Part shown: piece after piece, positions 2,739 through 62,105 of the stretch
Position numbering within the stretch: the first letter of the stretch is position 1
Layout of the letters: each line of letters opens with the position of its first letter
Assembly (NCBI GenBank): GCA_042218075.1
Contig: JBDGRK010000003.1
Span: 32,001-96,000, forward strand
DNA length: 64,000 nt
Reading direction: 5' to 3'
Source of the DNA: Candidatus Nanohaloarchaea archaeon
Lineage (GTDB): Archaea > Nanohalarchaeota > Nanosalinia > Nanosalinales > Nanosalinaceae
Position numbers and translations under genes: made by a program
The notes under the pieces: generated by a model
What the model saw: the letters and a program-made list of their open reading frames with translations, nothing else
Told to the model about the DNA's origin: nothing
Database searches by the model: none

Positions 2739-3113
2739 TCAGAAATCACCTGATTCTGTCTCCACTTTACTGCATTTTTCTCTCAGTTCCTCATCCAGTG
2801 TCGCCAGTTTTTCTCCATGCATCCTGGCTAAATAAATGAAGGAAGCATCGTAGAATGCTATTTCTTTTTCACCGGCAATTTCCATAGTTTCCTGCCTGTC
2901 AGCTTTCCAAATTTCTATCTCTTTCTCAATCATATCAAGCAACTCGAGTAATTCCTCTTGTTCCTCCTGTTCGATCTGTTCAAGAAGTGTATGCTGCTTC
3001 CAGATAATGTTGCTGACTTCGTAGAATGCGAAGTCAAGTGTTTTCGAGCCAAAAAGTTGCTCAACTTCTCCCTCCTCTATAGATTTGAAGATAAAGCTTG
3101 AGTCAGCTATCAT
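2739..3113 (-). CDS. vapC: VapC/PIN toxin
   Basis: IADSS..YEVSN..YDASFI..LATLD PIN acidic residues; overlaps antitoxin stop. Confidence 0.85.
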   Translation of the reverse strand: MIADSSFIFKSIEEGEVEQLFGSKTLDFAFYEVSNIIWKQHTLLEQIEQEEQEELLELLDMIEKEIEIWKADRQETMEIAGEKEIAFYDASFIYLARMHGEKLATLDEELREKCSKVETESGDF

Positions 3114-3779: not shown

Positions 3780-5561
3780 TCACTTCTCGTAGTACTCTCC
3801 CTTCTGTCTCTGCTCACGGTCTTTCTGGCTTTCGGGTTTGTTGGCTCTCATCCTTCCGGAATCGGGGTCCTTCCTGAATGTTATTCCAACTTCCTCCAGG
3901 AATCGGTCCATCGCATCTCCGATCTTCTCCGGCTCGGAACTACTTCCCTTCACTCCAGGCTCGCCGCTGAATACCATTCCACGATCAGCGACGTAATCCA
4001 GGAACATCAGGTCGTGGTCGATTACCATTAAAGGTTTCTCAGTCTTCCTCGCGAACTTCTTCAGCATCTTGCCGAGCTCTACCCTAGCCTCAACGTCGAG
4101 GTAGGCAGAGGGCTCATCCAGCAGGTAGACTTCCGCATCCCTGGAAAGGCAGATCGCGATCCCGACTTTCTGGAGCTCTCCTCCTGAAAGATCTTCGAGG
4201 TTGTTTTCGTAGAGCTTCTCGATCCCCAGAGGCTCTGCGATCCTGTTCTCGAACCTCTTCGATTCAATATCCGCATTTTTTGATAGAGCCTCTTCCACGG
4301 TCTCATCCTTGGCCTCAAGGTACTGCGGCTTGTAGGAGATCAAAACATTGGTAGATTCGCCTTCATCCGGCTCTATGCCTCCAGCCATCATCTTTGCGAA
4401 CACGGTCTTGCCGAGGCCGTTCTCACCGAAGATAGCCAGTATCTCTTCCTGATGGAGTTTCCCTTCTCTGGTCTCGAGCTCAAACTCTCCCTGACCGAAA
4501 TCCTTTGAGAAAGAAGGAAACTCAAGCACAGTCTTATTCTGCTCCACCCTGCTTCTCTTTGTACGATCAAACTTGATCTCGTCAGATCGGAAGCGGACAT
4601 TGTCGGAGGGAAGATAGCCCTCAAGGTACCGGTTTATGCCCTCCCTTGTCGACAGAGCGTTCGATACCATTCCGTAACCAGCAGGTTCGCCGTAGAATAT
4701 GTGTATAGAGTCCGATATCAGGTCGAGTGTCGCGAGGTCGTGCTCTACTGCCAGGACTTTTTCATCATCCAGCTTCCTGATCTCCCTGCCTGTCTCCAGT
4801 CTCTGCCCCACATCCAGGAAGGAGGAGGACTCGTCGAACATGTATAGATCCGCGTCATGGAGAAGTGTCCTGGCTATCGCCACCCTCTGGAGTTCTCCCC
4901 CGGAGAGGTTTTCCAGCTGCCTGTCAAGCAGATGACCTAAATCCAGCCTCTCCACCATCTCTTCGGCTTTTCCTCCTGAATCCTGCAGGAAATCTCTCAC
5001 CTTCCCATCGAACACCTCTGGAAGCCTTTCCACCTGCTGTGGCTTATAGGCTGATTCGACCTCGCCCTCCGAGAGAGCCTCGAAGTGGTCCTGGAGCCCT
5101 GTCCCGCGGTACTCCCTGACTATCTCTTCCCATCCGGGAGGACTCTCCCAGTTCCCGAGGTTGGGTTTGATCTCTCCTGACAGGATTTTGAGTGATACCG
5201 ACTTCCCGATGCCGTTCTCCCCGATCATTCCCACGGACCTACCCTTCTCCGGCGTGGGAACCCCGTAAAGCCTGAAGGAGTTCTCGTGGAACTGGTGGAT
5301 CTTATCCCCCTGCTCGAAGGGAAGCTGAATCATCTTGATCGCTCCCTCATGGGGGTAGCGGTTGATCGCCATCTTGTGGGACTCCATCACTTTCTCATCG
5401 TCGATGTGGAGCTCCTCGTTCTCGTCCAGGTAGAATCCTCCATCCTGGCCCGACCTGTTTAGAGGGTCGTACTTGATCACCGTCTCCCTCGCAAGATCCG
5501 GCTCGATCTTCTCCTGGTCTATGGCGACAATGAACTTCTTCGAGTTTCTGTCCGTTGACAT
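3780..5561 (-). CDS. abcE1: Ribosome recycling ATPase ABCE1/RLI (cysteine-free N-terminal domain)
   Basis: Two ABC NBDs (GENGIGKS, GENGLGKT; LSGGELQ x2), YKPQ motifs, C-terminal ITFRKD..GRMRANK..S.KDREQ hinge. Confidence 0.95.
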   Translation of the reverse strand: MSTDRNSKKFIVAIDQEKIEPDLARETVIKYDPLNRSGQDGGFYLDENEELHIDDEKVMESHKMAINRYPHEGAIKMIQLPFEQGDKIHQFHENSFRLYGVPTPEKGRSVGMIGENGIGKSVSLKILSGEIKPNLGNWESPPGWEEIVREYRGTGLQDHFEALSEGEVESAYKPQQVERLPEVFDGKVRDFLQDSGGKAEEMVERLDLGHLLDRQLENLSGGELQRVAIARTLLHDADLYMFDESSSFLDVGQRLETGREIRKLDDEKVLAVEHDLATLDLISDSIHIFYGEPAGYGMVSNALSTREGINRYLEGYLPSDNVRFRSDEIKFDRTKRSRVEQNKTVLEFPSFSKDFGQGEFELETREGKLHQEEILAIFGENGLGKTVFAKMMAGGIEPDEGESTNVLISYKPQYLEAKDETVEEALSKNADIESKRFENRIAEPLGIEKLYENNLEDLSGGELQKVGIAICLSRDAEVYLLDEPSAYLDVEARVELGKMLKKFARKTEKPLMVIDHDLMFLDYVADRGMVFSGEPGVKGSSSEPEKIGDAMDRFLEEVGITFRKDPDSGRMRANKPESQKDREQRQKGEYYEK

Positions 5562-5598
5562 AATCTATCATGGAATTCGCAATCTTAATATTCAATGG

Positions 5599-5862
5599 TC
5601 AGAAAAGACCGGAAAATTCTTCTCTTGCCCTGCTCTTTACTTCATCGAATTCCTCGGCTATTTTTTCTCCCTTCTCTGTCCTCTTGCCGTACTCGAGAAT
5701 ATACCTGTATGAACCGGCGCTTGCCGCGGTTACATTGGCTGTACCAATTGCACCGGTACCTGTTTTATGCCCGGCGATTGCACCTAAAGTAAATCCCAAT
5801 GCGTAGTAAGCCCAGATGTATCCGTCTCTTATATCCAGATGTTCTTCGGAGATAGATGACAC
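5599..5862 (-). CDS. Hypothetical small protein
   Basis: 87 aa ORF between nusA-like gene and abcE1, Gly/Ala-rich hydrophobic segment. Confidence 0.5.
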   Translation of the reverse strand: MSSISEEHLDIRDGYIWAYYALGFTLGAIAGHKTGTGAIGTANVTAASAGSYRYILEYGKRTEKGEKIAEEFDEVKSRAREEFSGLF

Positions 5863-14290: not shown

Positions 14291-14755
14291 ATGGTGCTCG
14301 AAAAATTCAAGGATAAAGTGAAGAGAAGGCCGGATGTGGCCGTTTATGTCGATGGGCCTAATGTCATAAGAAAAGAGTTCGACCTTGATCTCGACAGTTT
14401 GAGGGAAAAAGTTGAAGAATTCGGCAACATAAAGATAGGTGAGGTATTCCTGAACCAGTACGCCTCAGAGAAACTGATCGAGGCGATAGTCTCTCAAGGT
14501 TTCGAGGCCTCCCTAGGACTGGGGGGCGAGAAAGACAAGGAGAGCGACGTTGACGTTTACATGGCGGTTAATGCGATGGAGGCGGTATACAACGATGATA
14601 TAGATGTTATAGCGATTGTGACGAGGGATGCGGATTTCCTGCCGGTGATCCAGAAGGCGAAGGAAAAGGGGAAAGAGACCGTTGTTATAGGCACGGATCC
14701 CGGGTTTTCGACTGCGCTACAGAATGCAGCAGATAATGTACTGGAGCTGGAGTGA
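14291..14755 (+). CDS. NYN-domain protein (TIGR00288-like)
   Basis: VDGPN, DVDV, TRDADF, GFSTALQNAAD. Confidence 0.88.
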   Translation: MVLEKFKDKVKRRPDVAVYVDGPNVIRKEFDLDLDSLREKVEEFGNIKIGEVFLNQYASEKLIEAIVSQGFEASLGLGGEKDKESDVDVYMAVNAMEAVYNDDIDVIAIVTRDADFLPVIQKAKEKGKETVVIGTDPGFSTALQNAADNVLELE

Positions 14756-22263: not shown

Positions 22264-22968
22264 TCACTGTCTTATGTCACCCGCCCATTTTTCTATAAGT
22301 TCTTCGTGCTCATTTTCATCGTCAATATTTTCCCTTATTTCTTCTGCTGTGACTTCAGGTTCTCTCGTCTCTATTTTATCTTCTCCACGTATGATATCAT
22401 CAAAATTGTAGACTATCCTATCTGCGTAAATCATTATTTCTCTCAACGACTGCATTTTTGAAAAATCATCCTTGAAGCGGGAATTCACGAGTCTCAGGTC
22501 ATCGTATATAGTATCGGTTCCCATCCTATATTCCCTATTTCTTACAGTTCCTCTATTATTGTTTTCTGCTATTTTCCTTAACCTTGTCTTTCTGGATTCT
22601 ATTTCCGTTACCATTTCCTCTATCGTTCTCTCCTCCCAAAAATTCTCCTCTACTTTTTCTACTTCAAAAGTTAGGGTTTCTTCAATCTCGTGTCTCAACT
22701 TATTCATTTTTGGCACATATTTCCTAATTACTTGAGATATTTCCCTACCTTCTTCATATTCTCGACCTGCATCTACCATCAAGTGGTCTATAGCTTTGGT
22801 ATAATTGTTTAAATCCTCGAAAATTTCCGGGCTCGCATCAGCCACAATTTCAGTATAGGATTGCACCAATCCCTTGAAGTCTCTCAGATACCTTATCATT
22901 TCATCCCTGCTTCTTCTATCCGCATTCCTTTCATTCGGTCTTCTTCTGTCATCCCGGTCATCGAGCAT
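22264..22968 (-). CDS. Hypothetical helical protein (AT-rich orphan)
   Basis: 234 aa charged ORF. Confidence 0.6.
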   Translation of the reverse strand: MLDDRDDRRRPNERNADRRSRDEMIRYLRDFKGLVQSYTEIVADASPEIFEDLNNYTKAIDHLMVDAGREYEEGREISQVIRKYVPKMNKLRHEIEETLTFEVEKVEENFWEERTIEEMVTEIESRKTRLRKIAENNNRGTVRNREYRMGTDTIYDDLRLVNSRFKDDFSKMQSLREIMIYADRIVYNFDDIIRGEDKIETREPEVTAEEIRENIDDENEHEELIEKWAGDIRQ

Positions 22969-23062
22969 GAGCCTGGTTTAGTTATTAAGGTATAATAACT
23001 TGACTGAATAAGTCTTGAGAAATTATTTTCAAGATTTCTAAACCTCTCCTACAATTAGTAAA

Positions 23063-23692
23063 TTACTCCTCTTCCTGCATCTCCTTGATCTTTTTCATCC
23101 GGAAAGTTTCCTCTCTCGCGGATTCTTCGAGTGACTGGGAGACCATGTCCAGTGCATCCTTGAACTCCGGTATGACCTTGTGCTCCAGCGCGTTGACTCT
23201 CCTCTTGGTCTTCTCTATCTCTTCCAGCAGCTTCAGTATCTTTGTCTGGGTTTCCGCCGCTTCTACAACCTTCTCCAGCAGTTCTTCATACTTCTCAGCG
23301 ACTGAATCCACTCTTGAAGTCGCGGAAGTCATACCATACTCTCTCTCCATGATGGTCCTAGAGATTCCCTCCGACTCAATCTCCGGTACGACAACTCCCA
23401 TGATATTCCTTGTATCTGAATTAATCGTGGGTTCAGAATTTACTGGGAAGGCGTTTGACTTGACGATGTCCTCACCGTCGTAAACTTTCGCCAGAAGCAT
23501 TTTCAGCCTGGCTTCGGAGTAGAGGCTGGCTAGCTCTTCGTTCACCTCCCTCGCCTCCCCGGCGATTTCCATGAATTCGTGGATCAAGCCATCACGCTTC
23601 TTCTCCAGTATCTCGTGGCCGTTCTCCGCGAGTTCAATCCTCTCCTTCAGCCGTAATTCTTCCGAACGCGTTGGTTTAACATCCTGGCTCAT
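23063..23692 (-). CDS. atpD: A1Ao ATP synthase subunit D
   Basis: KPTRSE, LEKKRDGL, KTKRRVNALE. Confidence 0.96.
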   Translation of the reverse strand: MSQDVKPTRSEELRLKERIELAENGHEILEKKRDGLIHEFMEIAGEAREVNEELASLYSEARLKMLLAKVYDGEDIVKSNAFPVNSEPTINSDTRNIMGVVVPEIESEGISRTIMEREYGMTSATSRVDSVAEKYEELLEKVVEAAETQTKILKLLEEIEKTKRRVNALEHKVIPEFKDALDMVSQSLEESAREETFRMKKIKEMQEEE

Positions 23693-23964
23693 ATAGTTTC
23701 ACCTATTTCCGAAATTCTATCCAGGGTATATCCTTCAGGTAACTGGATATTTTCTACCACTGTTGTTTTTTCCTTTTTCCTGAACACACCATGCATCTCT
23801 TCTGTCATTTTCATTCTATAGGCTCCGTTTTTTCCTACTCTGAGCTCTATTTCATCGGCTGATTTTACTTCACTTACATCCTCTCCGTCTTCTGAAGCCC
23901 TGTAAAAATCTTGGGCGTAGCGAACCGGAATTTCATACCTTGATGTATCCGAGAGCTTGATCAT
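23689..23964 (-). CDS. Orphan gene between atpB and atpD
   Basis: ATG 4 nt after atpB stop; its stop overlaps atpD ATG (ATGA). Confidence 0.6.
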   Translation of the reverse strand: MIKLSDTSRYEIPVRYAQDFYRASEDGEDVSEVKSADEIELRVGKNGAYRMKMTEEMHGVFRKKEKTTVVENIQLPEGYTLDRISEIGETI

Positions 23965-23968
23965 CTTC

Positions 23969-25357
23969 CTATTCGAAGCTAGGACCCCGGTTTTCAAGGT
24001 ATTTTTCCCTGGTTTCAGGATCGATTCTCGTCAGCTCTGATTCCGGTAGTAGTGAAAGCAGGTCCCAGGAAAGCGATAGCGAATCGTTGATGTCGCGGTT
24101 CTCCCTGTATCCTTGCCCGACAAAGTGCTCCTCGAACTTTTCCGCGAAGTTCAGGATTTTCTCGTCTTTCTCCGATAGAGCGTCCTCCCCGACGATCGCC
24201 ACTAGATCTCTGAGTGATTCTCCCTCGGCGTACATCGCGTAGAGCTGGTCGGAGACATCCGGATGGTCCGCTCTCGTGTAGCCCTTTCCGACTCCGTTGT
24301 CCATCAACCTTGATAGCGAAGGTAAGACGTTGATCGGTGGCTGATGTCCCTTGTTCTGCAGGTCACGATCCACGACAATCTGTCCCTCCGTAATGTAACC
24401 TGTGAGGTCAGGGATGGGATGCGTTATATCGTCGTTGGGCATTGTCAGTATCGGGATCTGGGTAACTGATCCCTCCTCGCCCTTGATCAAACCCGCTCTC
24501 TCGTAGAGCTGCGCGAGATTGGTATACATGTATCCCGGGTATCCTCTCCTTCCCGGAACTTCCTCTCTCGCAGCTGAAACTTCTCTGAGGGCGTTGCAGT
24601 AGTTGGTCATGTCGGTAAGGATTACCAGCACCTCGTATCCCTTCTCGAATGCAAGGTACTCTGCGGTCGTGAGTGCCATCCTTGGCGTGATGATCCTCTC
24701 CGGAGCGGGATCCGAGGCCTTGTTCAGGAACACCACGGATCTCTCTAGGGCTCCTGTCTCCCGGAACTCCTCGATGAAGTCTTGGGATTCTTCCTCGGTG
24801 ATTCCCATGCCCGCGAATACTACAGCAAACTCCTCATCCTCTCCCTGAACATCCGCCTGTCTCGCAATCTGCATCGCAAGTTCGTTGTGCGGTAATCCGG
24901 AACCCGAGAATATAGGCAGTTTCTGGCCCCTGACCAGAGTGTTCATGACGTCGATACTTGAAATTCCCGTCTGGATGAAGTCCTCAGGGAGTTCTCTGGA
25001 GTAGGGATTGATCGCCTCTCCGATAATGTCTCTTTCCTCATCCGGGATCACTTCCGGACCGTCATCAATCGGGTTGCCTGTACCGTCTAGGATCCTTCCC
25101 AGGAGATCTTCAGTTACCGGCATCTTCACGTTCTCGTTAAGGAATCGGACTGATGCGTCCCGTCCGATTCCCCTTGTCTCCTCGTAGACCTGTACGACTA
25201 CTACATCCTTCGAGGTCTCAAGGACTTCTCCCTTCTTGACCTGCCCATCAGGGGTCTCAACTTCCACAATATCTCCATATGCTATATCGTCGGTTTTCTC
25301 GACATATACCAGAGGTCCTTTGACCTCGTTGATCGTCTTGTACTCTTGTTGTGTCAT
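23969..25357 (-). CDS. atpB: A1Ao ATP synthase subunit B
   Basis: [41 protein letters not shown]. Confidence 0.98.
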
Positions 25358-25373
25358 AGTATCTGTTTCACCC

Positions 25374-25769
25374 TCAGTTTTCAGTAAAATCTCCTATTAT
25401 TTCTGCAGAAATTTCTAATTTGGTTTCGACTTGATCGTATTTATCTTCCAATTTCTTATCCAATTTTCTGGCCAATTCTTTTGCTTCCATGTAATTACCT
25501 TCCCTTAGATATCTTTTGAGATTTCCCGCTTCTTCAACATCTGTACGCTCAACAAGATCCTCGAGAGGCGACTCTAATAGTTGTTCAGCTACTTTGCTTG
25601 ATACTTCTTCAGAACTTAATATTCTTGCTATCTGGCCGTCTGCATAGGTGGCTGGATATTCAGGATCAAAACCCGCATATAGTTCCACTATTTCTTCATG
25701 CGGGCCTATAAGTTCTTTGGAAGGTGTCCTCAACTTTCCATCACCCTTGAACTCCTTCTTGAATGTCAT
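25374..25769 (-). CDS. Orphan gene between atpA and atpB
   Basis: Acidic AT-rich ORF; start uncertain (MTFKK). Confidence 0.55.
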
Positions 25770-26058
25770 ATTCGTTTTCATCATCAAGCTTTTCTTCTCT
25801 CACTGAATCCATATCTCCCTGGCTTGTGGAAGTAGTTGACCTGTCCAGAGGAAGTAGGTCTATATGGTATTGATCTTCTAGAGTTTCTACAACCGCAGCT
25901 ACAGACTCCCAGTCCCGGTCATCAATCTGTCTTTCAAGTGTTTCCACCATCCCAAGACATAGATCTTCTACTTGACTCACTAACTCATCTGTATAAGTTT
26001 CATCCCTGCTGTATCTCTCCGAAAGATGTCTGGCATAGGGTACAGTTTCCACGCTCAT
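25741..26058 (-). CDS. Orphan gene between atpA and atpB
   Basis: ATG overlaps atpA stop (ATGA); acidic 105 aa. Confidence 0.55.
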
Positions 26059-27818
26059 TCCTCAACCACCTCTCTGAATTCTTTCTCCATCTCTTCTCTA
26101 ATCTCGTCCCTTAATTCCTGGTAGTTTTCCTCGAACTTGAGCTCGGAAATCCTGTTGGAGGCATCCAGGGAGATTATATCCTCTACAAGAGCACCCTGTT
26201 CAAGTGCTTCATAGGCCTGGTCCGCCCACTCTAAAATCAGCTCCAGTATCTCGAAGGTTTTCTCCGGGTCCGAGTACTGGTCTACTTCGTGGAACGCATT
26301 CTGCTGCAGGTAGAACTGCTTTATCATGGTTCCTATCTCAAGAGTCAGTCTCTCCCTGTCCGGAAGCGCGTCTTTACCCACTAGCTGGACAGTCTCCTGC
26401 AGCTCTCCATCCTTCTGGAGGATATCTTTCATCCTCTGGATATTGTCCGACCATTCAGAGTTAACTTCTCTCTCAAAGTAATTGGATAGCATCTCCGAGT
26501 AACCCGAGTATGAGTCATCCCAGTTGATCGCGGGGAAGTGCCTCTTCTCTGCAAGATCTGAATCAAGAGCCCAGAAGTTTTTAACCACTCTCAAAGTGTT
26601 CTGGGTTACCGGTTCTGAAAAGTCTCCGCCCGGCGGTGAAACAGCGCCGATAATCGACACCGATCCGGGTTCCTCAGGTCCCAGCGGTTCAACCCTTCCA
26701 GCCCTCTCGTAGAACTCCGCGAGCTTTGAAGCCAGGTAGGCGGGAAAACCTCTCTCGCCGGGCATCTCTTCAAGCCTGGATGAGATTTCTCGCATCGCCT
26801 CCGCCCACCTTGAAGTGGAGTCCGCCATCAGCGCAACATCGAGACCCTGGTCGCGGAAGTACTCGGCGATAGTTATCCCGGTATAAATCGAGGCCTCTCT
26901 CGCCGCAACAGGCATGTTGGAAGTGTTCGCAATCAGTACCGTACGGTTGATTATCTTGTCGCCGGTCTGCGGATCTTCCAGCTCCGGGAACTCTTCCAGC
27001 ACTTCTGTCATCTCGTTTCCTCTCTCCCCGCATCCGATGTAGACGATTATATCGGCGTCCGCAAACTTCGCGAGCGACTGCTGTGTCACCGTCTTGCCTG
27101 ATCCGAAAGGTCCCGGGATTGCTGCTGTACCTCCCTTCGCAAGAGGGAAAAGTCCGTCCAGAACTCTCTGTCCGGTTATCAGCGGAATTTCAGGTTTCAG
27201 GTCGTCTTTAACCTCTCTTGACTCCCTGATCGGCCATTCCTGCCTCATCGAGACTTCCTCGCCATCAACGACAGCAACTGTATCTTCAACAGTAAATTCT
27301 CCCTGCTTTATCTCTTCAACTTCTCCCTCAATACCGGGAGGAAGCATTACCTTGTGTTCGCCGTACTCCACCTCGGTCAAGCCGAGAACATCTCCGCCTT
27401 TCACGTACTTGCCTTCCTCCGTCTCTGGCTCGAACTCGTATTTTTTTTCCGGGTCGATTCCCGGTGCGTCTTCTCCCCTTGAGATGAATGCTCCGGTCTT
27501 CTCCTCCAGATCCGGTAGAGGTCTCTGTAGTCCATCGTAGATCGATCCAAGCAGTCCGGGTCCTAGCTCAACTGAAAGAGGTTGCCCGGTGTTTTTAACC
27601 GGTTCTCCCGGCCTTATGCCCGTAGTTTCCTCGTATACCTGTATGTACGTTTTATCTCCCTCTATCTGGATGACCTCGCCCATCAGTCCTTCCTCTCCTA
27701 CCTGGACGACGTCGTTCATCTGCGGGTTCATATCTTTTGCTATAACCACCGGTCCCGCCACCTTGTAGATTTCGCCTTCAGATTCTGATTGTTCGATCTG
27801 CTTCTGAGATTGTGCCAT
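26055..27818 (-). CDS. atpA: A1Ao ATP synthase subunit A (no intein)
   Basis: [38 protein letters not shown]. Confidence 0.98.
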
Positions 27819-27868
27819 TTTAACTTACACCCTAGTATTCTTTACGAAAACACTTTCCATGCATTTTT

Positions 27869-28177
27869 TCATGAAATATCTACCCCGATTACTTTCTGGA
27901 TTTTGTGCTGTAGCTGTGCATCCTCCGCAGTCTCTGAGAGCGTGACAACGACCGGATCCACCGATTCGTTAACCCTTCTTCTCAACCTGTCTGGAAGCTT
28001 TTTCACATCCGATTCCTCCGCCACCAGGATTCCCACATCATCTCTTTCTATAAGCTCTTCAATTTTCTGTTCATAGTTTTCAGTTCCGAAGACTTTCTGG
28101 ATTCCCGCCAGCTGGAAGCCCAGAGTGAACTCCTCTTCGCCTATAACTGCTATAGATTTCCTGTCATCCTTATCCAT
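27869..28177 (-). CDS. atpF: A1Ao ATP synthase subunit F
   Basis: IAVIGEEEFTLGFQLAGI..IQKVIGVDI. Confidence 0.93.
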   Translation of the reverse strand: MDKDDRKSIAVIGEEEFTLGFQLAGIQKVFGTENYEQKIEELIERDDVGILVAEESDVKKLPDRLRRRVNESVDPVVVTLSETAEDAQLQHKIQKVIGVDIS

Positions 28178-28189
28178 CTATGATCAACC

Positions 28190-29185
28190 TCAAGCTGTCA
28201 CCAGGTTAGATCTTATCGTATCAAGGTTTTGGATTTCAGTTTCCTTTGCACGGATCAACATCCTCAGGTTTTTCACTTCGATCATCTTCGCAACTATAAA
28301 TCCGAAAATCGAGGTTACTCCGAGAGGTTCCGTGTGAAGTGATCTCAGGGCTGTCCTCAACCTCTCTACCTCCAGTCTGTGCTCCACTTCTTCCAGGTTA
28401 CCTGGCTTTTCAAAGCTTATATCCTCGCATTCTTCCACCGCCTCTACAGCAGCTTCAAGACTCTCTGATTCTATAACTTTTTCAACACACGTCGATACCT
28501 CAGGAGATACAAGCCACTCCCTGATCTCTTGCTTCATTCCATCCTTCTTCAGCCTGAGTGCTATCTTCAGGTTCTCGTACTCCATTTCCTTTCTCACGAA
28601 CCGGCTGAACCAGATGCTTTCTGTTCCCTCCGCCATCATCGACATCTCCTTGAAGTATGCCCTGTCAAGGTCTCTTTCCACTTTCTTGACTTCCGAATAA
28701 TCCTCTATTTCTTTCTGGTAGTCAACTTCCGATCCTGGAAACTCTATTGAAGAACATATTTCCTCTACAGACTTCTCCGAGAGGTCCATCAATCCCTCCA
28801 CCGAATAGTAACCGACCGGAACAAGAAGATCCTCGATGTTTCCCCTCTCACCTCCCTTTTTCCATCTCAACAACCTCTTTATACTGAGTATATCGTACCT
28901 TCTCAGGAAGGAGTTGATCAGAGGTTCCAGGGAGTCAGGTGATATTTCTATAAGCTCGCCCATCATCCTCGAAATATTCCTCATCAGCGCCAATTCCACC
29001 AGTTCCATTCCATCATGGTCCGACCCAAGTTCATCAATATCTTCCTTGTACTCTCCCTCTTCGAGATTCCTTGCTATCTCGCTAGGACCCATCTTTACCA
29101 GTCTATCGTAATCCTCCTTCTCCAGGAGTTTGGCTCTCTTCGCGCTAATTCTGGCATACATGTAGGGATAATCAGTCTTCAGCAT
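28190..29185 (-). CDS. atpC: A1Ao ATP synthase subunit C
   Basis: YPYMYARISAKRAKLL, EVKNLRMLIRAK; operon position. Confidence 0.92.
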   Translation of the reverse strand: MLKTDYPYMYARISAKRAKLLEKEDYDRLVKMGPSEIARNLEEGEYKEDIDELGSDHDGMELVELALMRNISRMMGELIEISPDSLEPLINSFLRRYDILSIKRLLRWKKGGERGNIEDLLVPVGYYSVEGLMDLSEKSVEEICSSIEFPGSEVDYQKEIEDYSEVKKVERDLDRAYFKEMSMMAEGTESIWFSRFVRKEMEYENLKIALRLKKDGMKQEIREWLVSPEVSTCVEKVIESESLEAAVEAVEECEDISFEKPGNLEEVEHRLEVERLRTALRSLHTEPLGVTSIFGFIVAKMIEVKNLRMLIRAKETEIQNLDTIRSNLVTA

Positions 29186-29186
29186 T

Positions 29187-29723
29187 TCACTCACCAAAAA
29201 GCGTTTCAGCCACCTCTCTGCGGTATTTCTGCCTGAATTCTTCCAGTATTTTGTCGAAAGTGAAGCTCTGTCGTCTCTCTCCGTCTTCCGAGACAACTAC
29301 TATTCCTTCAACATCTGTTTCTCTGAATTCTTCATCCACAGCTTCCTCGAAACCCGGAGATCCTTCAATTCTTCCCACTTCGAACTCGACCTTCTCCATG
29401 CATCTCTCTACAAATTTCTGCCTGTCGCCTCTTGAAAGGTTTTCCAGGTATTCCCTGAAGTTTTCGAACACTTCGTCAATCTTCTGCTGTTTTGCCTCCA
29501 TTTTTGCCTCTTTTGCCTTCATCCTGGCACTTGAAAGGGTCTTCTTCCTCATCGATTCCTTTTCCTGCTCCAGTTTCTCTTCCTCATGCTCTCTTATCTC
29601 CTGGGCTTCTTCCTCTGCTTTTTCGATAATTTCGTCTCTCTCGTTTTCTGCTTCCTTTCTGATTTTTTCGGCCTTCTTCTCGGCTTCTTCCAAGATTTCC
29701 GATTTGATCTCCTGTAGTCCCAT
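29187..29723 (-). CDS. atpE: A1Ao ATP synthase subunit E
   Basis: MGLQEIKSEILEEA coiled coil; GIVVVSEDG..TFD. Confidence 0.9.
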   Translation of the reverse strand: MGLQEIKSEILEEAEKKAEKIRKEAENERDEIIEKAEEEAQEIREHEEEKLEQEKESMRKKTLSSARMKAKEAKMEAKQQKIDEVFENFREYLENLSRGDRQKFVERCMEKVEFEVGRIEGSPGFEEAVDEEFRETDVEGIVVVSEDGERRQSFTFDKILEEFRQKYRREVAETLFGE

Positions 29724-29770
29724 AGTATCACGTTAAATAAAGTGGTTGAAGGGGCGTTTGCCCCCTTGAT

Positions 29771-29989
29771 TTAGATGAATCCCGCTGCGACCAGCGCGAC
29801 CACGAACCCGAAGATAACCATGGTCTCCGGGATGACTGTAAGCACCAGCACCTGTCCGAACAGACTGTCGTCTTCAGCGATTGCTCCAACACCGGAGCTT
29901 CCGATCTTAGCCTGTGCCCATCCTGTTCCGATAGCTGCCAGTCCCACAGCGATTCCTGCACCGATCATTGCGAGTGGTTCTCCTGCCAT
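29771..29989 (-). CDS. atpK: A1Ao ATP synthase subunit K (c), single hairpin
   Basis: GAGIAVGLAAIG..GAIAED..PET. Confidence 0.95.
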   Translation of the reverse strand: MAGEPLAMIGAGIAVGLAAIGTGWAQAKIGSSGVGAIAEDDSLFGQVLVLTVIPETMVIFGFVVALVAAGFI

Positions 29990-30025
29990 TCAAATTTCAC
30001 CTCTCTTCTTTTGTTTTGATTTCAT
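29990..30025 (-). CDS. 11-codon uORF (MKSKQKKRGEI) abutting atpK
   Basis: Own SD (AGGTGA); TGA directly followed by atpK ATG; contains the atpK SD. Confidence 0.4.
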   Translation of the reverse strand: MKSKQKKRGEI

Positions 30026-30074
30026 GTTGATTTTCACCTAGAGTATTCTTTTATGGTCATCGTGAAAGATTTCA

Positions 30075-31901
30075 TCAGATTTCCCTCGCACCGAAAGGAG
30101 AGTACTTCTTTCCTCCTCCCTCGTAAAATTTTGAGAACATCTCCACGTAGTGGAGGCGGATTCCCTGAAGGAATCCTTCCATGATTTTGATGAAAGTGTT
30201 GAAGCTGTGGCCCACCATCAGCATTAGAACCCCTGCAGCAATCCCCAGAAGACTGCCTGTGGCGAACAACGGATGAGCGAAGGCATTCACAACTTTTGCC
30301 AGTGAAAAAGCCGCCACCGAGACCCCAAAAAGCCTCAGGTAGGAAAGCACGTTCGAAAGCAGCGAAGGTATCTCGATTACTCCTGCTATTCCCTCTCCCA
30401 GGTAAAGCAGTATCACCGCGACAGCGAACACTGGTGCTCCAGCCTTCAATCCCAGGAAGAACGCCAGAGCGACAGCGATCTCCAGCAGCAACCAGCTTCC
30501 CTTTTCCAGGAAAGCTTCTCTGAAGCCGTGCTTCACATGTTCATTATAAAATCCGAGGAGATATCCGGCGTTTATGTGGATTATTCCTATAAGTGCCGAC
30601 AGCTGGAAGACCTGCGACCAGTGGGCGGAACGATGGAATAGAATAGGGATTTTCTCGAACAGGTGGATGCCCGTGGCCTTTGCCAGTTCCGAGTGATGTC
30701 CAAATATGATGTAACCAAAAGCGTCGCCGTATATCAACCCGAATATTATCGTGGCGACGGAAGCGTACATTAGAGACCTGAAAATCTTCTCCGCCTCTGG
30801 AAAGAACCTGTAGCCCGCGTAGAAAACCGCCAGAGATGAAAGACCGTAGCCCGCATCCCCTATCATGAAGCCGAAGAACAGCGGGAAGGTAAGGAAGATT
30901 ATAAACGATGGGTCCAGCTCATTATATCTTGGAACAGACATAAGGTCGGTGAGAGATTCAAAGGATCTTACAGGGCCGGGATTTTGGTGCTTAACCGGGG
31001 GATTTTCTCCCTCAATCTTCTCCACGTGGATTTTTCCTTCAGTCTCACCTGCAAGCTCCTCCTCCATCTCACTGAACCTCTCCGCAGGTATCCATCCCTC
31101 TGCCACGAACGTTTCTTCAGTAGTACCGAACTCCAGCGGTGCTTCAGCCTTCTCAACCTTCTCCGCCAGGAATTCTTCGGCCTCTTCAAGCTCGGGCCTC
31201 CACTTCCCAGCCAGGTTCTCCAGACTCTTCCTTTTTTCCCTCTTCTCCTTTTCGAAAGATTCAATCTCTACCTGAATCTTCTCAATTATTTCCGAAGGGC
31301 GACCATCAAACTCCGAATCTACAACACCAAATTCCTCGATTGATGCATCTCTTACAGCTTTCTCCCTGTTCTCTCCTTCCTGGAAGAAAACAACCTCTGC
31401 TTCTTCTCCCTCCAAAACTTCGTATCTTTCATCCGGCATTTTTTTACTGAGTGTCTCCAGGTCGATCCTTCCCACGAAGCAGTCAAGCTCCCTGGTTCCT
31501 TCAAGGTCACGGTACTCGATGCCAGCTCCCTCCAGCTTCTCGAAGTATTCTCTCTGCTCCTCCAGCTTTGCAATACTGTTATCGATAGCAGAAATCTGCT
31601 CCTCTAGATCATTTACCTCCTGGTTTAGCTCCGGGATATTTTCCTGTATCTCGGCTATTGTTCTTCCGCTACCTGATTCTCCCTCTACCTGGGGAAGCTT
31701 TGAAATCGTCGAACGGAGATCAACAATAAGCTGGGATACTTGCTCCGCTTCCTCAAGACTTTCTCCTTTTTCAAGATCGCCATCGTAGTTTTCAATATCC
31801 AGTAGCTGCATGGAGTGAAGCCTCTCCACTACCGGCCTGAGATTCTCTTTCAGTCCAACTATTGAAACCTTCTCCATCTCTGCAGGTCTGATAAATTTCA
31901 C
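30075..31901 (-). CDS. atpI: A1Ao ATP synthase subunit I (a)
   Basis: PRYNELDP, GFMIGDAGYG, LSYLRL, IRLHYVEMFSKFY. Confidence 0.96.
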   Translation of the reverse strand: MKFIRPAEMEKVSIVGLKENLRPVVERLHSMQLLDIENYDGDLEKGESLEEAEQVSQLIVDLRSTISKLPQVEGESGSGRTIAEIQENIPELNQEVNDLEEQISAIDNSIAKLEEQREYFEKLEGAGIEYRDLEGTRELDCFVGRIDLETLSKKMPDERYEVLEGEEAEVVFFQEGENREKAVRDASIEEFGVVDSEFDGRPSEIIEKIQVEIESFEKEKREKRKSLENLAGKWRPELEEAEEFLAEKVEKAEAPLEFGTTEETFVAEGWIPAERFSEMEEELAGETEGKIHVEKIEGENPPVKHQNPGPVRSFESLTDLMSVPRYNELDPSFIIFLTFPLFFGFMIGDAGYGLSSLAVFYAGYRFFPEAEKIFRSLMYASVATIIFGLIYGDAFGYIIFGHHSELAKATGIHLFEKIPILFHRSAHWSQVFQLSALIGIIHINAGYLLGFYNEHVKHGFREAFLEKGSWLLLEIAVALAFFLGLKAGAPVFAVAVILLYLGEGIAGVIEIPSLLSNVLSYLRLFGVSVAAFSLAKVVNAFAHPLFATGSLLGIAAGVLMLMVGHSFNTFIKIMEGFLQGIRLHYVEMFSKFYEGGGKKYSPFGAREI

Positions 31902-38559: not shown

Positions 38560-38649
38560 GACTGAGAGTTGACTTGAAACCATAAAAGTTTCAGCAGACC
38601 CGGGTAGTTATTAAAAACCTGAGACCGAGAATTTAACTGTGATAAGACA

Positions 38650-42886: not shown

Positions 42887-44059
42887 ATGAATGCAGATTC
42901 CAAAATCGACGATTTCCTGGAATCGAGTAAATTTGATGCATTTCTAATTTTTGATGATTCGGCATCGAATGAAAATCTTTTCTACCTGACAAGTTTTAAG
43001 GCGTCTGATTCTTTTCTCTATTTCTTTGCGAAAGGTGAAAGCACTGTAGTAGTCCCACAGCTCGAGTATTCGAGGGCTGAAGAAGAGGCAGAAGTAGACA
43101 ATATCTACAGCAGTTCGAAATATGTTAGCGGCGAATCGAGAGATAATGAAAGTAAGAGAATAGAAACCATAAGAAAAGCGCTAGAGGATAAAGGAATTAA
43201 TAGAGTAGCAGTTCCAGGTGAATTTCCACTGAAGCTAGCCGATGATCTGGAAAGTGAGGGAATAGAAGTTGAGCCAGCAGAACAAAATCCTGTAATGGAA
43301 GCCAGGAAGAGGAAAGACAGTGGGGAACTTGAAAAATTGAGAGAAGTGCAGGAGTTGACGGAGGAAGCCATGAAAAGAACGAGAGAAATTATAGGAAATG
43401 CAGAGGTCAGGGATGGAGTTCTTTACAGAGATGGAGAGATACTTACATCTGAAAGGGTGAAGAAGAAAATCAAGCTCTTCATGTTGGAAAACAACTGTGA
43501 GGTACCTGAAAATACAATAGTGGCCTCTGGAGCTGAATCTGCGAAACCTCATTCGAGAGGTTCAGGGCCTATAGAAGCGGGAGAACCGATCATCGTTGAC
43601 ATCTTTCCAAGACATGATAATAATTATTTCGGCGACATGACCCGGACGTTTGTCAAGGGAGAAGTACCTTCAGAAGTCCAGGAGATGAAGCAATCAGTTG
43701 ATGAGGCCCTAGAAGCTGCTTTTGAGGTACTTGAGAGAGGAGCAGGTGTCAAGGCAAAAGAAGTTCATGCGAGGGTCTGCGATGTCCTGGAGAAGCATGG
43801 ATATGAAACTTTGAGAAATAATGAAGAGGCGGAAAGCGGGTTTTTACATTCTACAGGTCATGCGGTGGGACTTGAACTGCATGAGAGTCCGCGTGTAGCT
43901 GGCAACAAAGATGAACTTGAAGAGGGAATGGTGCTTACGATAGAACCTGGCCTATACATTCCAGAAATCGGAGGCCTGAGACTGGAAGACATGATAGTTG
44001 TTGAGGAAGATGGATTTGAGAACTTCAATTCTATGAGCAGGGAAATAAAGCTTGATTAA
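42887..44059 (+). CDS. Xaa-Pro peptidase (M24 family)
   Basis: PH, D..DMTRT, HSTGHAVGLELHE, TIEPG, LED. Confidence 0.93.
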   Translation: MNADSKIDDFLESSKFDAFLIFDDSASNENLFYLTSFKASDSFLYFFAKGESTVVVPQLEYSRAEEEAEVDNIYSSSKYVSGESRDNESKRIETIRKALEDKGINRVAVPGEFPLKLADDLESEGIEVEPAEQNPVMEARKRKDSGELEKLREVQELTEEAMKRTREIIGNAEVRDGVLYRDGEILTSERVKKKIKLFMLENNCEVPENTIVASGAESAKPHSRGSGPIEAGEPIIVDIFPRHDNNYFGDMTRTFVKGEVPSEVQEMKQSVDEALEAAFEVLERGAGVKAKEVHARVCDVLEKHGYETLRNNEEAESGFLHSTGHAVGLELHESPRVAGNKDELEEGMVLTIEPGLYIPEIGGLRLEDMIVVEEDGFENFNSMSREIKLD

Positions 44060-45636
44060 TCCAGTTCCTTGACCATGTAAGGCCCTTCCTTCTCGTAACC
44101 TAACTTCCGGTAGTACTCCCGTGTTCCAACCGCGGAGATTACCACGACCTTCTCTCTTCCGATCTCTCGGGCTTTTTCCTCAGCTCGCTCCATCAACCTT
44201 CTTCCAAAACCCTGGTGCTGGGCCTCTCCCTCCTCCCCGAGCTCTGTCGCTGTTCCAAGGACCTTCAGCTGCCTGACTATAAGTGAATCATCATCGATCT
44301 CCGGCCTGAAGGATTCCGGGGGAGCTCTCAGTCTCGTGAAACCGAGGATTATATCCTTTCCAGTATCCTCGTAGCTCAGGAAGTACTCTTTGCCGCCTGA
44401 GGCATCGTAGATTCTCTCCACTGCTTCTACATCCTCAGGGGTCTCACCATGCTTCTGCCTGACGTGTCCGACTTCCCTGCAGCGGATGCACCTGCATCTA
44501 TCTCCCTCTTCCTCCATCTCCTGGAGGGCCATCTGGCGCATATTTGTGAGCTGTGGTCCCGCATCTACTTCAGTCGAGGGAATGTCACGCATCACCCTCT
44601 TCACCCTGACATGGGGAGGAATTTGGCTTACGAGTATCTCTTTCAGCCTTTCTTTTGCCTCCTCGTCGTCTATCGGATCGAACTCGCCCTCCTCGTACCT
44701 CCTGTAGAGCTCGGTTCCCTGGATGACTTCGCAGGGATAGATCTTTACCTCGTCGGGCTGGAGGTCCGGGTCGGAAAAGGTCTTCCTGAATTTCTGTATA
44801 TCTTCTTCGTATCCCTCGCCGGGAAGACCGAGCATCAGGTGGTAGGCGACCTTGAAACCCGCGTTTTTCAACCGCTTAGTTGCCTCGATTACAGGCTCCA
44901 TGCCGTGGCCTCTGTTCGTTATTTCATGGGTTTCATCGAACACAGTCTGTACACCCATCTCGACCCTGGTTCCCCCCATTTCAAGGATGCGGTCGATATG
45001 CTCGGTCTCGCAGATGTCAGGCCTTGTCTCGAAGGTCACTCCAACATTCCTGACCTCCGCTTTCTCATTCTTCAGCTGTGCCTCTTCAAGTTTGTCAGCT
45101 TCTTCAAGCCCTGAATTGTCCGGGTAGGTGTTGAACCCATCGAAAGCTCTCTTCAAAAATTCTCGCTGGTAATCCGGGTCCTGGAAGGGGAAGGTTCCTC
45201 CCATCACTATCAGCTTTGACTTGTCTATGGAGTGCCCGTTCTTCTCGTACTGATTCAGTCTATCGTGGACCTGGTCGAAAGGATCGTAGTCGTTCCTGAT
45301 AGCTCTCCTCGTTGCCGGTTCTTTACCTGTATAGCTCTGGGGAGCATCTTTTCCCTTCGGACAGTAGATGCAGCCCCCGCCGCATGGAGCAGGTCTCGCC
45401 ATTATCGCTATGTTTGCGATTCCGGATATCGTCCTCATGGGCTTGGTTTTCAGAAGTTTCCTTGCGTCTTCCTCTCCTTCTTCCGCAAATTCCAGTATGT
45501 CTGAGTTCTTCGGCATCCCCTCGAAATCGCTCTCCCCGCAGAGCTGCTTTTTCCTCGCCTCTATCTCTTGCTTGGATTCTATCTCGCCATCCTGAATCTC
45601 TTCTATTATATTGCGTGAAATCTTTTCGAGGCTCAT
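44056..45636 (-). CDS. elp3: Elp3 radical SAM/GNAT tRNA U34 acetyltransferase
   Basis: KPMRTISG, CGGGCIYCP, QSYTG, ETRPD, CRCIRCRE, QHQGFG; start MSLEKI at 45636. Confidence 0.95.
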   Translation of the reverse strand: MSLEKISRNIIEEIQDGEIESKQEIEARKKQLCGESDFEGMPKNSDILEFAEEGEEDARKLLKTKPMRTISGIANIAIMARPAPCGGGCIYCPKGKDAPQSYTGKEPATRRAIRNDYDPFDQVHDRLNQYEKNGHSIDKSKLIVMGGTFPFQDPDYQREFLKRAFDGFNTYPDNSGLEEADKLEEAQLKNEKAEVRNVGVTFETRPDICETEHIDRILEMGGTRVEMGVQTVFDETHEITNRGHGMEPVIEATKRLKNAGFKVAYHLMLGLPGEGYEEDIQKFRKTFSDPDLQPDEVKIYPCEVIQGTELYRRYEEGEFDPIDDEEAKERLKEILVSQIPPHVRVKRVMRDIPSTEVDAGPQLTNMRQMALQEMEEEGDRCRCIRCREVGHVRQKHGETPEDVEAVERIYDASGGKEYFLSYEDTGKDIILGFTRLRAPPESFRPEIDDDSLIVRQLKVLGTATELGEEGEAQHQGFGRRLMERAEEKAREIGREKVVVISAVGTREYYRKLGYEKEGPYMVKELD

Positions 45637-45688
45637 GGTGTCCAGAGCTGTATGAAGAATTAAAAAGAAACAGTTAATTGATTGATTT

Positions 45689-46564
45689 ATGGAAAAACGA
45701 ACGAGGAATCTCCTGGCGGGCGGAATTGGTCTAATATTGATTTTTTCGCTTATTGGGTTCTTTGCCTCTGGAAAGGCATCTGAACTTGATCTGAGGAAGG
45801 GAGATGTCGCGGTGGTCTCGCTGGACGGATCGATAACTTCTTCGTCCTCGGGCTTTGGCTCTTCCTCCATCACACCCTCGAAGGTTAGAGACCTGAATGA
45901 GAGAGCTTTGAACTCGGGAGCGGACGCGATTATCTACGAGATAAACTCAGGAGGTGGAGCAGTAGTTGCCTCGAAAGATGTAAAGCGTGAGATTGAATCG
46001 GTTGGAGTCCCCACAGTTTGCAGGTTGAGGGATGTGGCTGCATCCGGAGGCTACCTGATCTCACTGGGATGTAACAGAACAGTTGCCGATTCCGCATCTA
46101 TTACCGGCAGTATAGGTGTCAGGAGCTCTTTCCTTGAATTCTCTGGACTCCTGAACAGGCTCGGGGTTGAATACGTCAATATTACCTCTGGTAAGCTGAA
46201 GGGCGTGGGTTCACCTTACAGGAATATTACCCCTGAGGAGAGGAGACTCCTGAAGCAGAAGTCCGAGATGATACACAGGGAGTTCATCAATCTAGTTGAA
46301 AAGGAGAGGAATCTGAGTCAATCGGAGGTGGAGAAGATTAGCACGGGTGAGATTTTCCTTGGTAGCGAAGCGAAGAAGCTGGAACTTGTCGACAAGCTAG
46401 GAGGCCGGCAGCAGGCAGTTGAGGAGGCAGAAAACCTTACGGGCCATGATCTCAAGGTTAAACAGGTCGACGAGGGGCCGGATTTCAGTTTCCTGGATTT
46501 GATGGGAATAGAATCTTTTCTTTCCTCGGGAGCAAATCCTCCCCTGAGGGCTGAGATTGGATAG
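45689..46564 (+). CDS. sppA: Signal peptide peptidase SppA
   Basis: INSGGG, AASGGY, TGSIGV, GKLK. Confidence 0.92.
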   Translation: MEKRTRNLLAGGIGLILIFSLIGFFASGKASELDLRKGDVAVVSLDGSITSSSSGFGSSSITPSKVRDLNERALNSGADAIIYEINSGGGAVVASKDVKREIESVGVPTVCRLRDVAASGGYLISLGCNRTVADSASITGSIGVRSSFLEFSGLLNRLGVEYVNITSGKLKGVGSPYRNITPEERRLLKQKSEMIHREFINLVEKERNLSQSEVEKISTGEIFLGSEAKKLELVDKLGGRQQAVEEAENLTGHDLKVKQVDEGPDFSFLDLMGIESFLSSGANPPLRAEIG

Positions 46565-62034: not shown

Positions 62035-62105
62035 AACTGATACCCGAATTTCGATATATAAAGTCGATACATATTGATATCGATTTCTAATTTGAAGTGA
62101 AATTT

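Follow-up and report, generated by a model that had tools for sequence, protein, structure and literature searches.

ABCE1, named Rli1 in yeast, is often cited as a reason why cytosolic iron-sulfur (Fe-S) assembly is essential in eukaryotes. In the canonical cycle, as laid out in excerpts of PMC7196836, closure of the ATP sites displaces the N-terminal FeS domain, the ribosomal subunits are split, and the domain remains at rRNA helix 44 (h44) and uS12 until hydrolysis. The cluster ligands of human ABCE1 are C16-C21-C25-C65 and C29-C55-C58-C61 according to Table 1 of a 2026 review (PMC13255074), excerpts of which also describe the clusters as essential for folding and function and state that no fewer than seven of the eight Cys residues are needed for viability. 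In excerpts of the same review and of PMC6088178, the eight cysteines are called conserved and essential. Here we describe an ABCE1 orthologue that has none of these cysteines. It is encoded in a stretch of 64,000 nucleotides (hereafter the window; positions 32,001 to 96,000 of contig JBDGRK010000003.1, assembly GCA_042218075.1) from Candidatus (Ca.) Nanohaloarchaea archaeon.

The window protein shares its domain order, ATP sites, hinges and uS12 loop with canonical ABCE1 (P. abyssi, 3BK7; S. solfataricus, 6TMF; yeast Rli1; human ABCE1), and its predicted structure superposes on canonical ABCE1 at 2.3-3.0 Å, the N-terminal domain (N-domain) included. It differs in that the eight ligand cysteines are replaced, no Fer4 or RLI Pfam domain is recognised, the N-domain is acidic, and the rRNA contacts are not the same. 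The laboratory constructs 1YQT and 3OZX, from which the FeS domain was deleted, are likewise cluster-free and have a similar ATPase body (Z 43.5), but they lack the entire domain, whereas that of the window protein is present, full length and conserved. Barthelme et al. 2011 reportedly found that ABCE1 with a deleted FeS domain does not split ribosomes. Natural single-cluster forms of ABCE1, which we encountered in two versions (L030, P0135, P0136, P0138 and P0141; L123, L148, P0181, P0238 and P0245), keep a partial ligand set with four cysteines for one cluster, while the window protein keeps none. Finally, the bacterial-type [4Fe-4S]/[3Fe-4S] ferredoxins 4OV1, 8AMP and 1IQZ are the best matches of the isolated N-domain model, with low scores (Z 3.7-4.4, root mean square deviation (rmsd) about 2 Å); unlike these ferredoxins, the window domain has no cluster ligands and no electron-transfer role is expected of it.

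Among the literature matches listed, with subscription journals outside the search, there was no paper on a cysteine-free or single-cluster ABCE1. Likewise, the matches listed held no paper that combined 'Nanohaloarchaeota' with ABCE1 and none that combined a nanohaloarchaeal name with a recycling term; the excerpts of the one paper pairing ABCE1 with DPANN say nothing on cysteines. With a probability of roughly 0.7, we consider the window protein to be the only ABCE1 of its genome and a working one, with a predicted wedge domain that would fold without a cofactor and follow the canonical cycle; its activity, its fold and the way in which the two cluster cavities are filled are what we infer from the comparisons presented below.

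Identity and integrity of the ABCE1 gene

The encoded protein matched the NCBIfam model NF009945 (RLI) with 690 bits, the cut-off being 469 (E 2.9e-207), and residues 11-592 were placed on positions 4-589 of the 592-position profile. NF009945 represents, at equivalog level, RLI (ABCE1), the ribosome biogenesis/translation initiation ATPase, and the match was full-length and above the curated cut-off. In addition, the solved ABCE1 chains in the PDB matched the window protein at E values of 8e-160 to 5e-123 with 36-49% identity. Together these matches established the ABCE1 identity that had been proposed in a sequence-only reading of the window. Both ATPase domains proved to be intact, as had also been proposed, since all five motifs are present twice. 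In nucleotide-binding domain (NBD) 1 these are Walker A (114-121), Q-loop (173-175), signature (219-223), Walker B (239-244) and H-loop (272-275), and in NBD2 the same elements occupy residues 379-386, 411-413, 458-462, 478-483 and 514-517. The sole cysteine of the whole protein, C471, is located in NBD2. When the protein was scanned with Pfam at E<=1, ABC_tran was the only domain recognised, in two stretches, and neither Fer4 nor RLI was detected even at this threshold.

In the assembly from which the window derives (1.10 Mb, 40 contigs, 92% complete), a single protein exceeded the RLI cut-off, and the six further matches were single-domain ABC ATPases. Every relative that has ABCE1 has one copy, as do the seven single-contig genomes of the same family (G002, G005, G010, G017, G020, G021 and G023). 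A second, cysteine-bearing paralogue, which the sequence-only reading had regarded as worth checking for, was thus not found in this 92%-complete genome. Nor is the gene a decaying copy beside a canonical ABCE1, the outcome that would have undone that reading: the copy is single and its N-domain is its best-conserved part.

The sequence itself appears to be sound. Over positions 5246-5700, which include the N-terminal coding part, not one letter differed in contigs from two public sequencing runs belonging to two studies; one of the runs may be the source sample. A cluster of eight substitutions within 29 bases was observed near the 3′ end of the gene (3815-3843) in one contig per run, the gene being otherwise identical; this patch probably reflects strain variation or the edge of a recombined segment.

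The splitting partners aRF1 and Pelota are encoded in the same genome, as indicated by two eRF1_3 matches. The aRF1 gene (G000:C23:16409-18490; locus L157, 2410-4491) was found to contain an intein with a LAGLIDADG homing endonuclease and a helix-turn-helix domain, and open frames of 917-973 aa at this locus suggest that aRF1 inteins are also present in several relatives.

Residues at the former cluster ligands

To map the ligand positions, the N-terminal 100 residues were aligned to S. solfataricus ABCE1 (6tmf_d) and to L030, which has five cysteines and is the closest Cys-bearing relative, and the residues at each site were counted in 79 cysteine-free sequences (Table 1). We number the ligands C1 to C8 in order, with C1, C2, C3 and C8 holding cluster 1 and C4 to C7 holding cluster 2. 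Cysteine was present at 0/8 of these positions in the window protein. That the N-terminus is devoid of cysteine while its scaffold is preserved had been read from the letters alone, and both statements stood: the domain contains 0 Cys, our translation agrees with the earlier one, and P21, P33, N35, R36, P70, A74-I75 and L80-P81 are all present. In particular, the prolines that follow C4 and C8 are retained. The further suggestion that the domain is packed by hydrophobic residues was accurate in part. It applies to the cluster-1 sites, which carry Ile, Ala, Val and Tyr, but not to the cluster-2 sites, where invariant Asp and His are found together with Met.

The cluster-binding motif CxxCxxCxxxCP is absent from the window ABCE1, and no open reading frame (ORF) of at least 60 aa in the genome contains CxxCxxCxxxC. 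The genome therefore has no free-standing FeS domain that could act in trans.

Table 1. Features of the window, with the residues found at former cluster ligand positions in 79 cysteine-free ABCE1 sequences
Feature	Position	Strand	Basis or content
ABCE1/Rli1 orthologue	3780..5561	-	593 codons + stop; ORF, NCBIfam RLI match
ABCE1 codons 1 to about 81 of the 593-aa ORF (region of the sequence-only reading)	5320-5561	-	
Cysteine-free N-domain (residues 10-80), counterpart of the 2x[4Fe-4S] FeS domain	5322..5534	-	0 Cys, alignment, AlphaFold2
I19, former cluster-1 ligand C1	5505..5507	-	Ile 73, Val 5, Leu 1 of 79
A24, former cluster-1 ligand C2	5490..5492	-	Ala 74, Val 5 of 79
V28, former cluster-1 ligand C3	5478..5480	-	Val 74, Ala 5 of 79
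D32, former cluster-2 ligand C4; Cys-Pro to Asp-Pro; codon gac	5466..5468	-	Asp 79/79, also in L030
D32-S37 loop, counterparts of the uS12 contacts P25, R28, S29 (P33, R36, S37)	5451..5468	-	Alignment to 6tmf_d
M59, former cluster-2 ligand C5; codon atg	5385..5387	-	Met 78/79
H62, former cluster-2 ligand C6; codon cac	5376..5378	-	His 79/79, also in L030
A65, former cluster-2 ligand C7	5367..5369	-	Ala 74, Ile 5 of 79
Y69, former cluster-1 ligand C8; Cys-Pro to Tyr-Pro	5355..5357	-	Tyr 74, Ile 5 of 79
Cantilever/linker and NBD1 (about residues 84-330)	4572..5312	-	Motif scan, Pfam ABC_tran, structural match to ABCE1 chains
Hinge 1, NBD2, hinge 2 (about residues 345-593)	3783..4529	-	Motif scan, Pfam, structural match
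Elp3	44056..45873	-	Radical_SAM, Radical_SAM_C, ELP3_N and GNAT domains; three-Cys radical-SAM motif
ORF, 521 aa	10769-12334	-	No Pfam match at E<=1e-5
ORF, 548 aa	15801-17447	+	No Pfam match at E<=1e-5
ORF, 818 aa	17447-19903	+	No Pfam match at E<=1e-5
A-type ATP synthase operon	22264-32222	-	Subunits D, B, A, F, C, E, I and an H-like gene
PIN-domain (three) and NYN-domain (two) ribonuclease genes	2739-3113 (-), 34742-35140 (+), 38104-38583 (-), 14291-14755 (+), 62097-62609 (+)		

Distribution and conservation of the cysteine-free form

We surveyed 70 genomes of the phylum, which represent one order and five families. In the family of the window genome (f1), ABCE1 was detected in 45/49 genomes, that genome excluded, and the N-domain was examined in 36 genomes including it. 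Cysteine was lacking from 35/36 of these N-domains, the exception being G007, whose ABCE1 (locus L030) has five cysteines. A second family (f4) has ABCE1 in 6/8 genomes, and the five N-domains examined there were all free of cysteine (5/5). The only genome of family f5 encodes an ABCE1 with the full canonical set (1/1). Consistent with this distribution, all of the best 120 database homologues (120/120; 63-77% identical) lack cysteine ahead of the conserved Phe-Arg-Leu-Tyr motif, the nearest of them coming from Ca. Nanosalina, from the cultured Ca. Nanohalobium constans and Ca. Nanohalococcus occultus, and from a Nanohaloarchaea archaeon. Since the state is common to well over 100 orthologues, chance is ruled out.

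The picture was widened by a scan of one genome per species, in which all N-domains of 80 ABCE1 loci with organism names were examined. Four nanohaloarchaeal loci (L076, L078, L079 and L095) have no cysteine at the ligand positions covered, C1 of L076 being lost at a contig end, and in L077 and L090 the N-terminal part is absent at a contig end. Two loci of Ca. Woesearchaeota, L123 and L148, are without cluster-1 ligands. The remaining 72 loci carry 7-10 cysteines in the N-domain region. Among them are the haloarchaeal loci whose N-domain is complete, and 17/17 of these retain the full set of ligand cysteines (Halorubrum, Haloferax, Haloarcula, Halobellus, Halohasta, Natronomonas, Halanaeroarchaeum and others). 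The cysteine-free ABCE1 is thus specific to Nanohaloarchaeota, where it occurs in two of five families with one exception in f1.

An explanation of the cysteine loss as a general trait of halophiles with a 'salt-in' strategy was rejected, because 17/17 haloarchaeal N-domains retain their cysteines and a cysteine-poor metagenomic sequence, P0130, is not acidic. This f1-like protein of 583 aa is 46% identical to the window protein, has the same replacements except for a cysteine at C7, and carries a charge of -1.4 per 100 residues; judging from P0130, the cysteine-poor form may also exist outside acidic, salt-in proteomes.

The N-domain is not only retained but better conserved than the rest of the protein. 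For f1-like sequences, the mean pairwise identity is 0.79 over residues 10-80 versus 0.66 in NBD1, 0.72 in NBD2 and 0.70 in hinge 2, and for f4 it is 0.88 versus 0.72, 0.71 and 0.63, respectively. The cluster-bearing N-domains of the 17 haloarchaea show an identity of 0.83 versus 0.76 for the ATPase body. As the ratio of N-domain to ATPase is similar in both groups, the cluster-free domain is under the same relative constraint as the cluster-bearing one. These identities show that strong purifying selection acts on the N-domain in two nanohaloarchaeal families.

Single-cluster intermediates and the probable route of loss

The exceptional f1 sequence L030 (1495-1800) keeps C1, C2, C3, C7 and C8, and thereby the full cluster-1 ligand set, and has Asp, Thr and His at C4-C6. 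Searching a profile of the cysteine-free domain against 1.84 billion representatives gave 242 hits at E<=0.001, the best 150 of which were examined. Eleven rows among these best 150 had no cysteine at the ligand columns, and all of them showed f1-type or f4-type residues. Four metagenomic sequences (P0135, P0136, P0138 and P0141) share the cluster-1-only pattern of L030, including the Asp at C4 and the His at C6, and C7 is also kept in some sequences of this type. The sequence they come closest to is L030 (47-62% identity), and they are not acidic, so the cluster-1-only form is not confined to halophiles. A complementary form that retains only cluster 2 was represented by P0181, P0238 and P0245, which are 78-85% identical to L123 and L148 of Ca. 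Woesearchaeota. Here C1, C2 and C8 are replaced by Leu, Gln/Glu and Ala/Phe, and C3 by Ile/Tyr (in L148 a Cys aligns at this position), while the four cluster-2 cysteines are kept. Most rows that seemed to have seven cysteines were alignment shifts at C5.

The families f1 and f4 are alike at the cluster-2 sites (Asp, Met, His), whereas at the cluster-1 sites Ile/Ala/Val/Tyr in f1 stand against Val/Val/Ala/Ile in f4. Trees were built from the ATPase body only and are gene trees of one protein. In these, f1 including L030 formed a clade (100/99), as did f4 (99/95), and L030 was placed in an unresolved basal f1 polytomy. When outgroups were added in a quick search, f1, f4 and f5 grouped together with a Shimodaira-Hasegawa-like approximate likelihood ratio (SH-aLRT) support of 88, beside a sequence from Aenigmatarchaeota (95). 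An origin of the gene from haloarchaea was rejected, since the haloarchaea group with Methanosarcinales and Archaeoglobales (99), far from the nanohaloarchaeal sequences. In approximately unbiased (AU) tests, neither an f1+f4 clade with f5 outside (p 0.5) nor the placement of L030 as sister to all other f1 sequences (p 0.44) was rejected, and a single clade of all fully cysteine-free sequences was rejected (p 0.0005).

The simplest reading of these trees and residues is a loss in two steps. Cluster 2 would have been lost first and once, with Asp and His taking its place, and cluster 1 would have been lost later and separately in f1 and f4, that is, at least twice. Alternatively, the N-domain may have been replaced in G007.

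Predicted fold and ribosome-docking surface

A full-length structure was predicted with AlphaFold2 from the 79 cysteine-free sequences and no templates. The model reached a mean predicted local distance difference test (pLDDT) score of 89.2, with 84-93 for blocks of 10 residues in the N-domain, and a predicted template modelling (pTM) score of 0.84. It matched the post-splitting ABCE1 6tmf_d with Z 45.7 and an rmsd of 3.0 Å over 570 residues (model range 9-592), and it also matched 6zvj_1 (Z 43.3, 2.5 Å, 565 residues), 7a1g_x (Z 40.0, 2.3 Å, 564 residues) and 3jag_jj (Z 47.5, 1.9 Å, 497 residues). Foldseek gave template modelling (TM) scores of 0.87-0.89 against ABCE1 chains. The model resembles closed states bound to the small subunit, including the N-domain, and structures of pre-splitting or free ABCE1 align from residue ~80 onward only. 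Both the helix-loop-helix insert and hinges 1 and 2, which make up the ABCE1-specific architecture, are present in the predicted model, and other ABC ATPases scored Z <=28.

The N-domain was also modelled in isolation from 27 rows (pLDDT 72.2). In a Foldseek search the best matches of this model, at E 0.017-0.1 overall, were ABCE1 itself (6tmf_d, E 0.017; 3bk7, E 0.055) and then small ferredoxins. A Foldseek-independent comparison with 48,161 chains placed four single-cluster ferredoxins at the top (Z 3.7-4.4, rmsd 1.9-2.2 Å, 49-50 residues, model range 9-80/81). Taken as predictions, the models agree with a retained FeS-domain fold and position; in other words, the structure prediction that had been proposed along with the sequence-only reading gives, from cysteine-free sequences, the canonical arrangement of this domain.

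Excerpts of PMC7196836 list P25, R28 and S29 of the S. solfataricus FeS domain as touching uS12 in the post-splitting complex, R2, K15, N17, E19 and K59 as touching rRNA, and I68, N70 and E74 in the cantilever. The three residues on this list that touch uS12 are identical in the window protein, and D32-P33-L34-N35-R36 is invariant in the 79 sequences. In the cantilever, the counterpart of E74 is Glu83, which is invariant, and that of N70 is Gln79. The uS12 encoded in the same genome has kept the Gln and His within the matching local sequence of the 6tmf chain, assuming an offset of two residues between the numbering of uS12 in the paper and in the chain.

Iron-sulfur proteins of the host

Fe-S use is not globally lost in this lineage. 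Genes with a SufBD core were found in 24/24 f1 relatives and twice in the window genome, and Elp3, encoded in the same window, has the three-Cys radical-SAM motif; the retention of these cysteines in Elp3, and with it the continued use of Fe-S, had been read from the letters. No other protein of the genome matched Radical_SAM. The family of the archaeal/eukaryotic primase large subunit PriL, PF04104, whose members carry a [4Fe-4S] cluster, had no match in the genome and so offered no second case in which to look for cysteine loss. The Fe-S proteome thus looks very small, and the loss of cysteine from ABCE1 is a specific change in one client protein on a background of Fe-S biology that is reduced but present.

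The SufB gene itself (G000:C15:71841-74318; locus L156, 842-3319) is split by an intein with a LAGLIDADG homing endonuclease, and SufD follows it. In G028, the f5 genome with the canonical eight-Cys ABCE1, a NifU_N/IscU-type scaffold was detected (E 6e-45) and no SufBD match, whereas the window genome has SufBD and no NifU_N. The type of Fe-S assembly system accordingly differs between families of the phylum.

A family apparently without ABCE1

In family f3, ABCE1 was detected in 0/10 genomes (G026, G029, G031, G033, G035, G037, G039, G041, G042 and G043; 80-93% complete), where only single-domain ABC ATPases matched (best E 1.7e-15). Genes with an eRF1_3 domain were present in 9/10 of these genomes, mostly two of them (aRF1 and Pelota). 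Family f3 therefore appears to have lost ABCE1 entirely, and an archaeal family without ABCE1 would be remarkable, if true. The bacterial ribosome recycling factor (RRF), considered as a substitute for ABCE1 in f3, was rejected with 0/10 genomes encoding it.

A proposed cofactor-free wedge and its alternatives

If the cysteine-free domain is the working wedge that we favour, the space of cluster 1 would be filled by Ile19, Ala24, Val28 and Tyr69, and that of cluster 2 by a polar pair of Asp32 and His62 together with Met59 and Ala65. Because the replacement residues would fill both cavities, the small domain could fold without a cofactor. ATP-driven closure of the NBDs would then push the N-domain against the factor in the A site, either aRF1 or Pelota, and the N-domain would swing into the pocket between uS12 and rRNA helix 44. 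In this manner the subunits would be forced apart, and their re-joining would be blocked until ATP is hydrolysed.

Several observations weigh against this reading. On its own, the domain hardly registers as an FeS domain at the sequence level, its sole PDB match being 6tmf_d at E 0.36. The structural matches of the isolated domain are weak as well, since Foldseek gave nothing at E<=0.001 and all VIA Z scores were below 5. Moreover, AlphaFold2 was trained on solved ABCE1 structures and is blind to cofactors, so that a canonical-looking model is no proof of metal-free folding. The residues corresponding to the five rRNA contacts are identical in 0/5 cases (R2, K15, N17, E19 and K59 to F10, L23, R25, T27 and N67), and the N-domain is net acidic, with -8.4 charges per 100 residues versus +6.7 in 20 canonical representatives. 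The latter objection is weakened by the fact that the cluster-bearing N-domains of haloarchaea are even more acidic (-14.5 per 100 residues), which marks acidity as a halophile trait and not as a sign of lost function. Given the apparent absence of ABCE1 from f3, the constraints on recycling in this phylum may be unusual. Lastly, the Asp, His and Met that are invariant at one of the former cluster sites could belong to a metal site as readily as to a polar filling.

Such a metal site is the alternative that survives best, although we regard it as unlikely. The domain would hold one metal ion (Zn, Fe or Cu, for example) or an oddly ligated cluster at the former cluster-2 site via Asp32, His62, Met59 and perhaps His52 or Glu60, and only cluster 1 would have been turned into a hydrophobic core. 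Asp and His (79/79 each) and Met (78/79) do occupy three of the four canonical ligand positions of one cluster, this Asp and this His recur in every sequence seen without cluster 2 (L030 and the four metagenomic representatives), and His52 and Glu60 are at least 90% conserved. However, the single-cluster intermediates have Thr or Ser at C5, so Met is dispensable, His52 is missing from L030, and a hydrogen bond between Asp and His accounts for their pairing equally well. We also know of no structural metal site that consists of three ligands including one Met.

Slightly less probable still is a change of function. The gene would then be a true orthologue, but its N-domain would no longer serve as the splitting wedge; its role might be limited to that of an anti-association or initiation factor, or it might bind a partner specific to the lineage, recycling being generally relaxed in Nanohaloarchaeota. 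The lack of ABCE1 from f3 (0/10 genomes, 80-93% complete), 9/10 of which keep eRF1-type factors, would suit this explanation, as would the altered rRNA contacts (0/5 identical) and the strong divergence of the N-domain alone from canonical FeS domains (E 0.36). It is opposed by the conservation of the N-domain, which is the best-conserved part of the protein and whose identity relative to that of the ATPase body matches the haloarchaeal ratio, by the retention of the uS12-contact loop and of the cantilever Glu (E83), by the integrity of both ATP sites and the hinge regions, and by the presence of aRF1 and Pelota in the same genome. That the finding is an artefact or a sign of decay, be it a misassembly, a pseudogene or a paralogue made redundant by a canonical copy, is highly improbable: a 40-contig, 92%-complete assembly could hide a second copy in its missing part, for this genome alone, but the frame is open with every motif intact, contigs of two studies agree fully on the N-terminal sequence, each of seven single-contig family genomes has one copy, and the state is common to 120/120 best homologues.

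As to what drove the loss, the sequence-only reading had suggested oxygen tolerance or iron sparing. PMC7443923 describes Ca. Nanohalobium constans as an aerotolerant fermenting anaerobe, and according to PMC3442406 the clusters of ABCE1 are oxidant-sensitive in yeast and a main target of oxidative damage to growing cells. Oxygen alone is nevertheless a poor explanation, since the haloarchaea that share these brines retain all ligand cysteines (17/17). At least as likely a driver is a reduced Fe-S economy in a symbiont whose genome of about 1 Mb has one radical-SAM gene and no ferredoxin motif.

Beyond the window protein, we lean slightly towards a wider conclusion: ABCE1 would do its full job without a cofactor, and the [4Fe-4S] clusters would be replaceable structural props rather than part of the mechanism, replaced at least twice via single-cluster intermediates that survive today, while one family lives without ABCE1, which would imply an unknown archaeal recycling route. 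A natural and strongly conserved cysteine-free ABCE1 makes the question of what the clusters are for directly testable. If metal-free splitting is true, the clusters are structural only, and the substitutions Ile/Ala/Val/Tyr and Asp/Met/His/Ala offer a ready blueprint for making ABCE1 oxidation-proof. The order of events can be read from the single-cluster relatives, and experiments are feasible with the cultured relatives Ca. Nanohalobium constans and Ca. Nanohalococcus occultus, which share the cysteine-free form.

The only proteins retrieved by a search of the ESM Atlas that skipped Fe-S families were fragments of ABCE1 (283-454 aa) and ABC proteins unrelated to it, none of which pointed to further cysteine-free lineages.

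Other genes of the window

Three long ORFs in the window are without a Pfam match (Table 1). The two on the plus strand adjoin each other and are followed by an ORF with a nucleotidyltransferase domain. The A-type ATP synthase operon is ordinary in its composition. Finally, three PIN-domain and two NYN-domain ribonuclease genes were found within this one 64-kb window of a 1.1-Mb genome.

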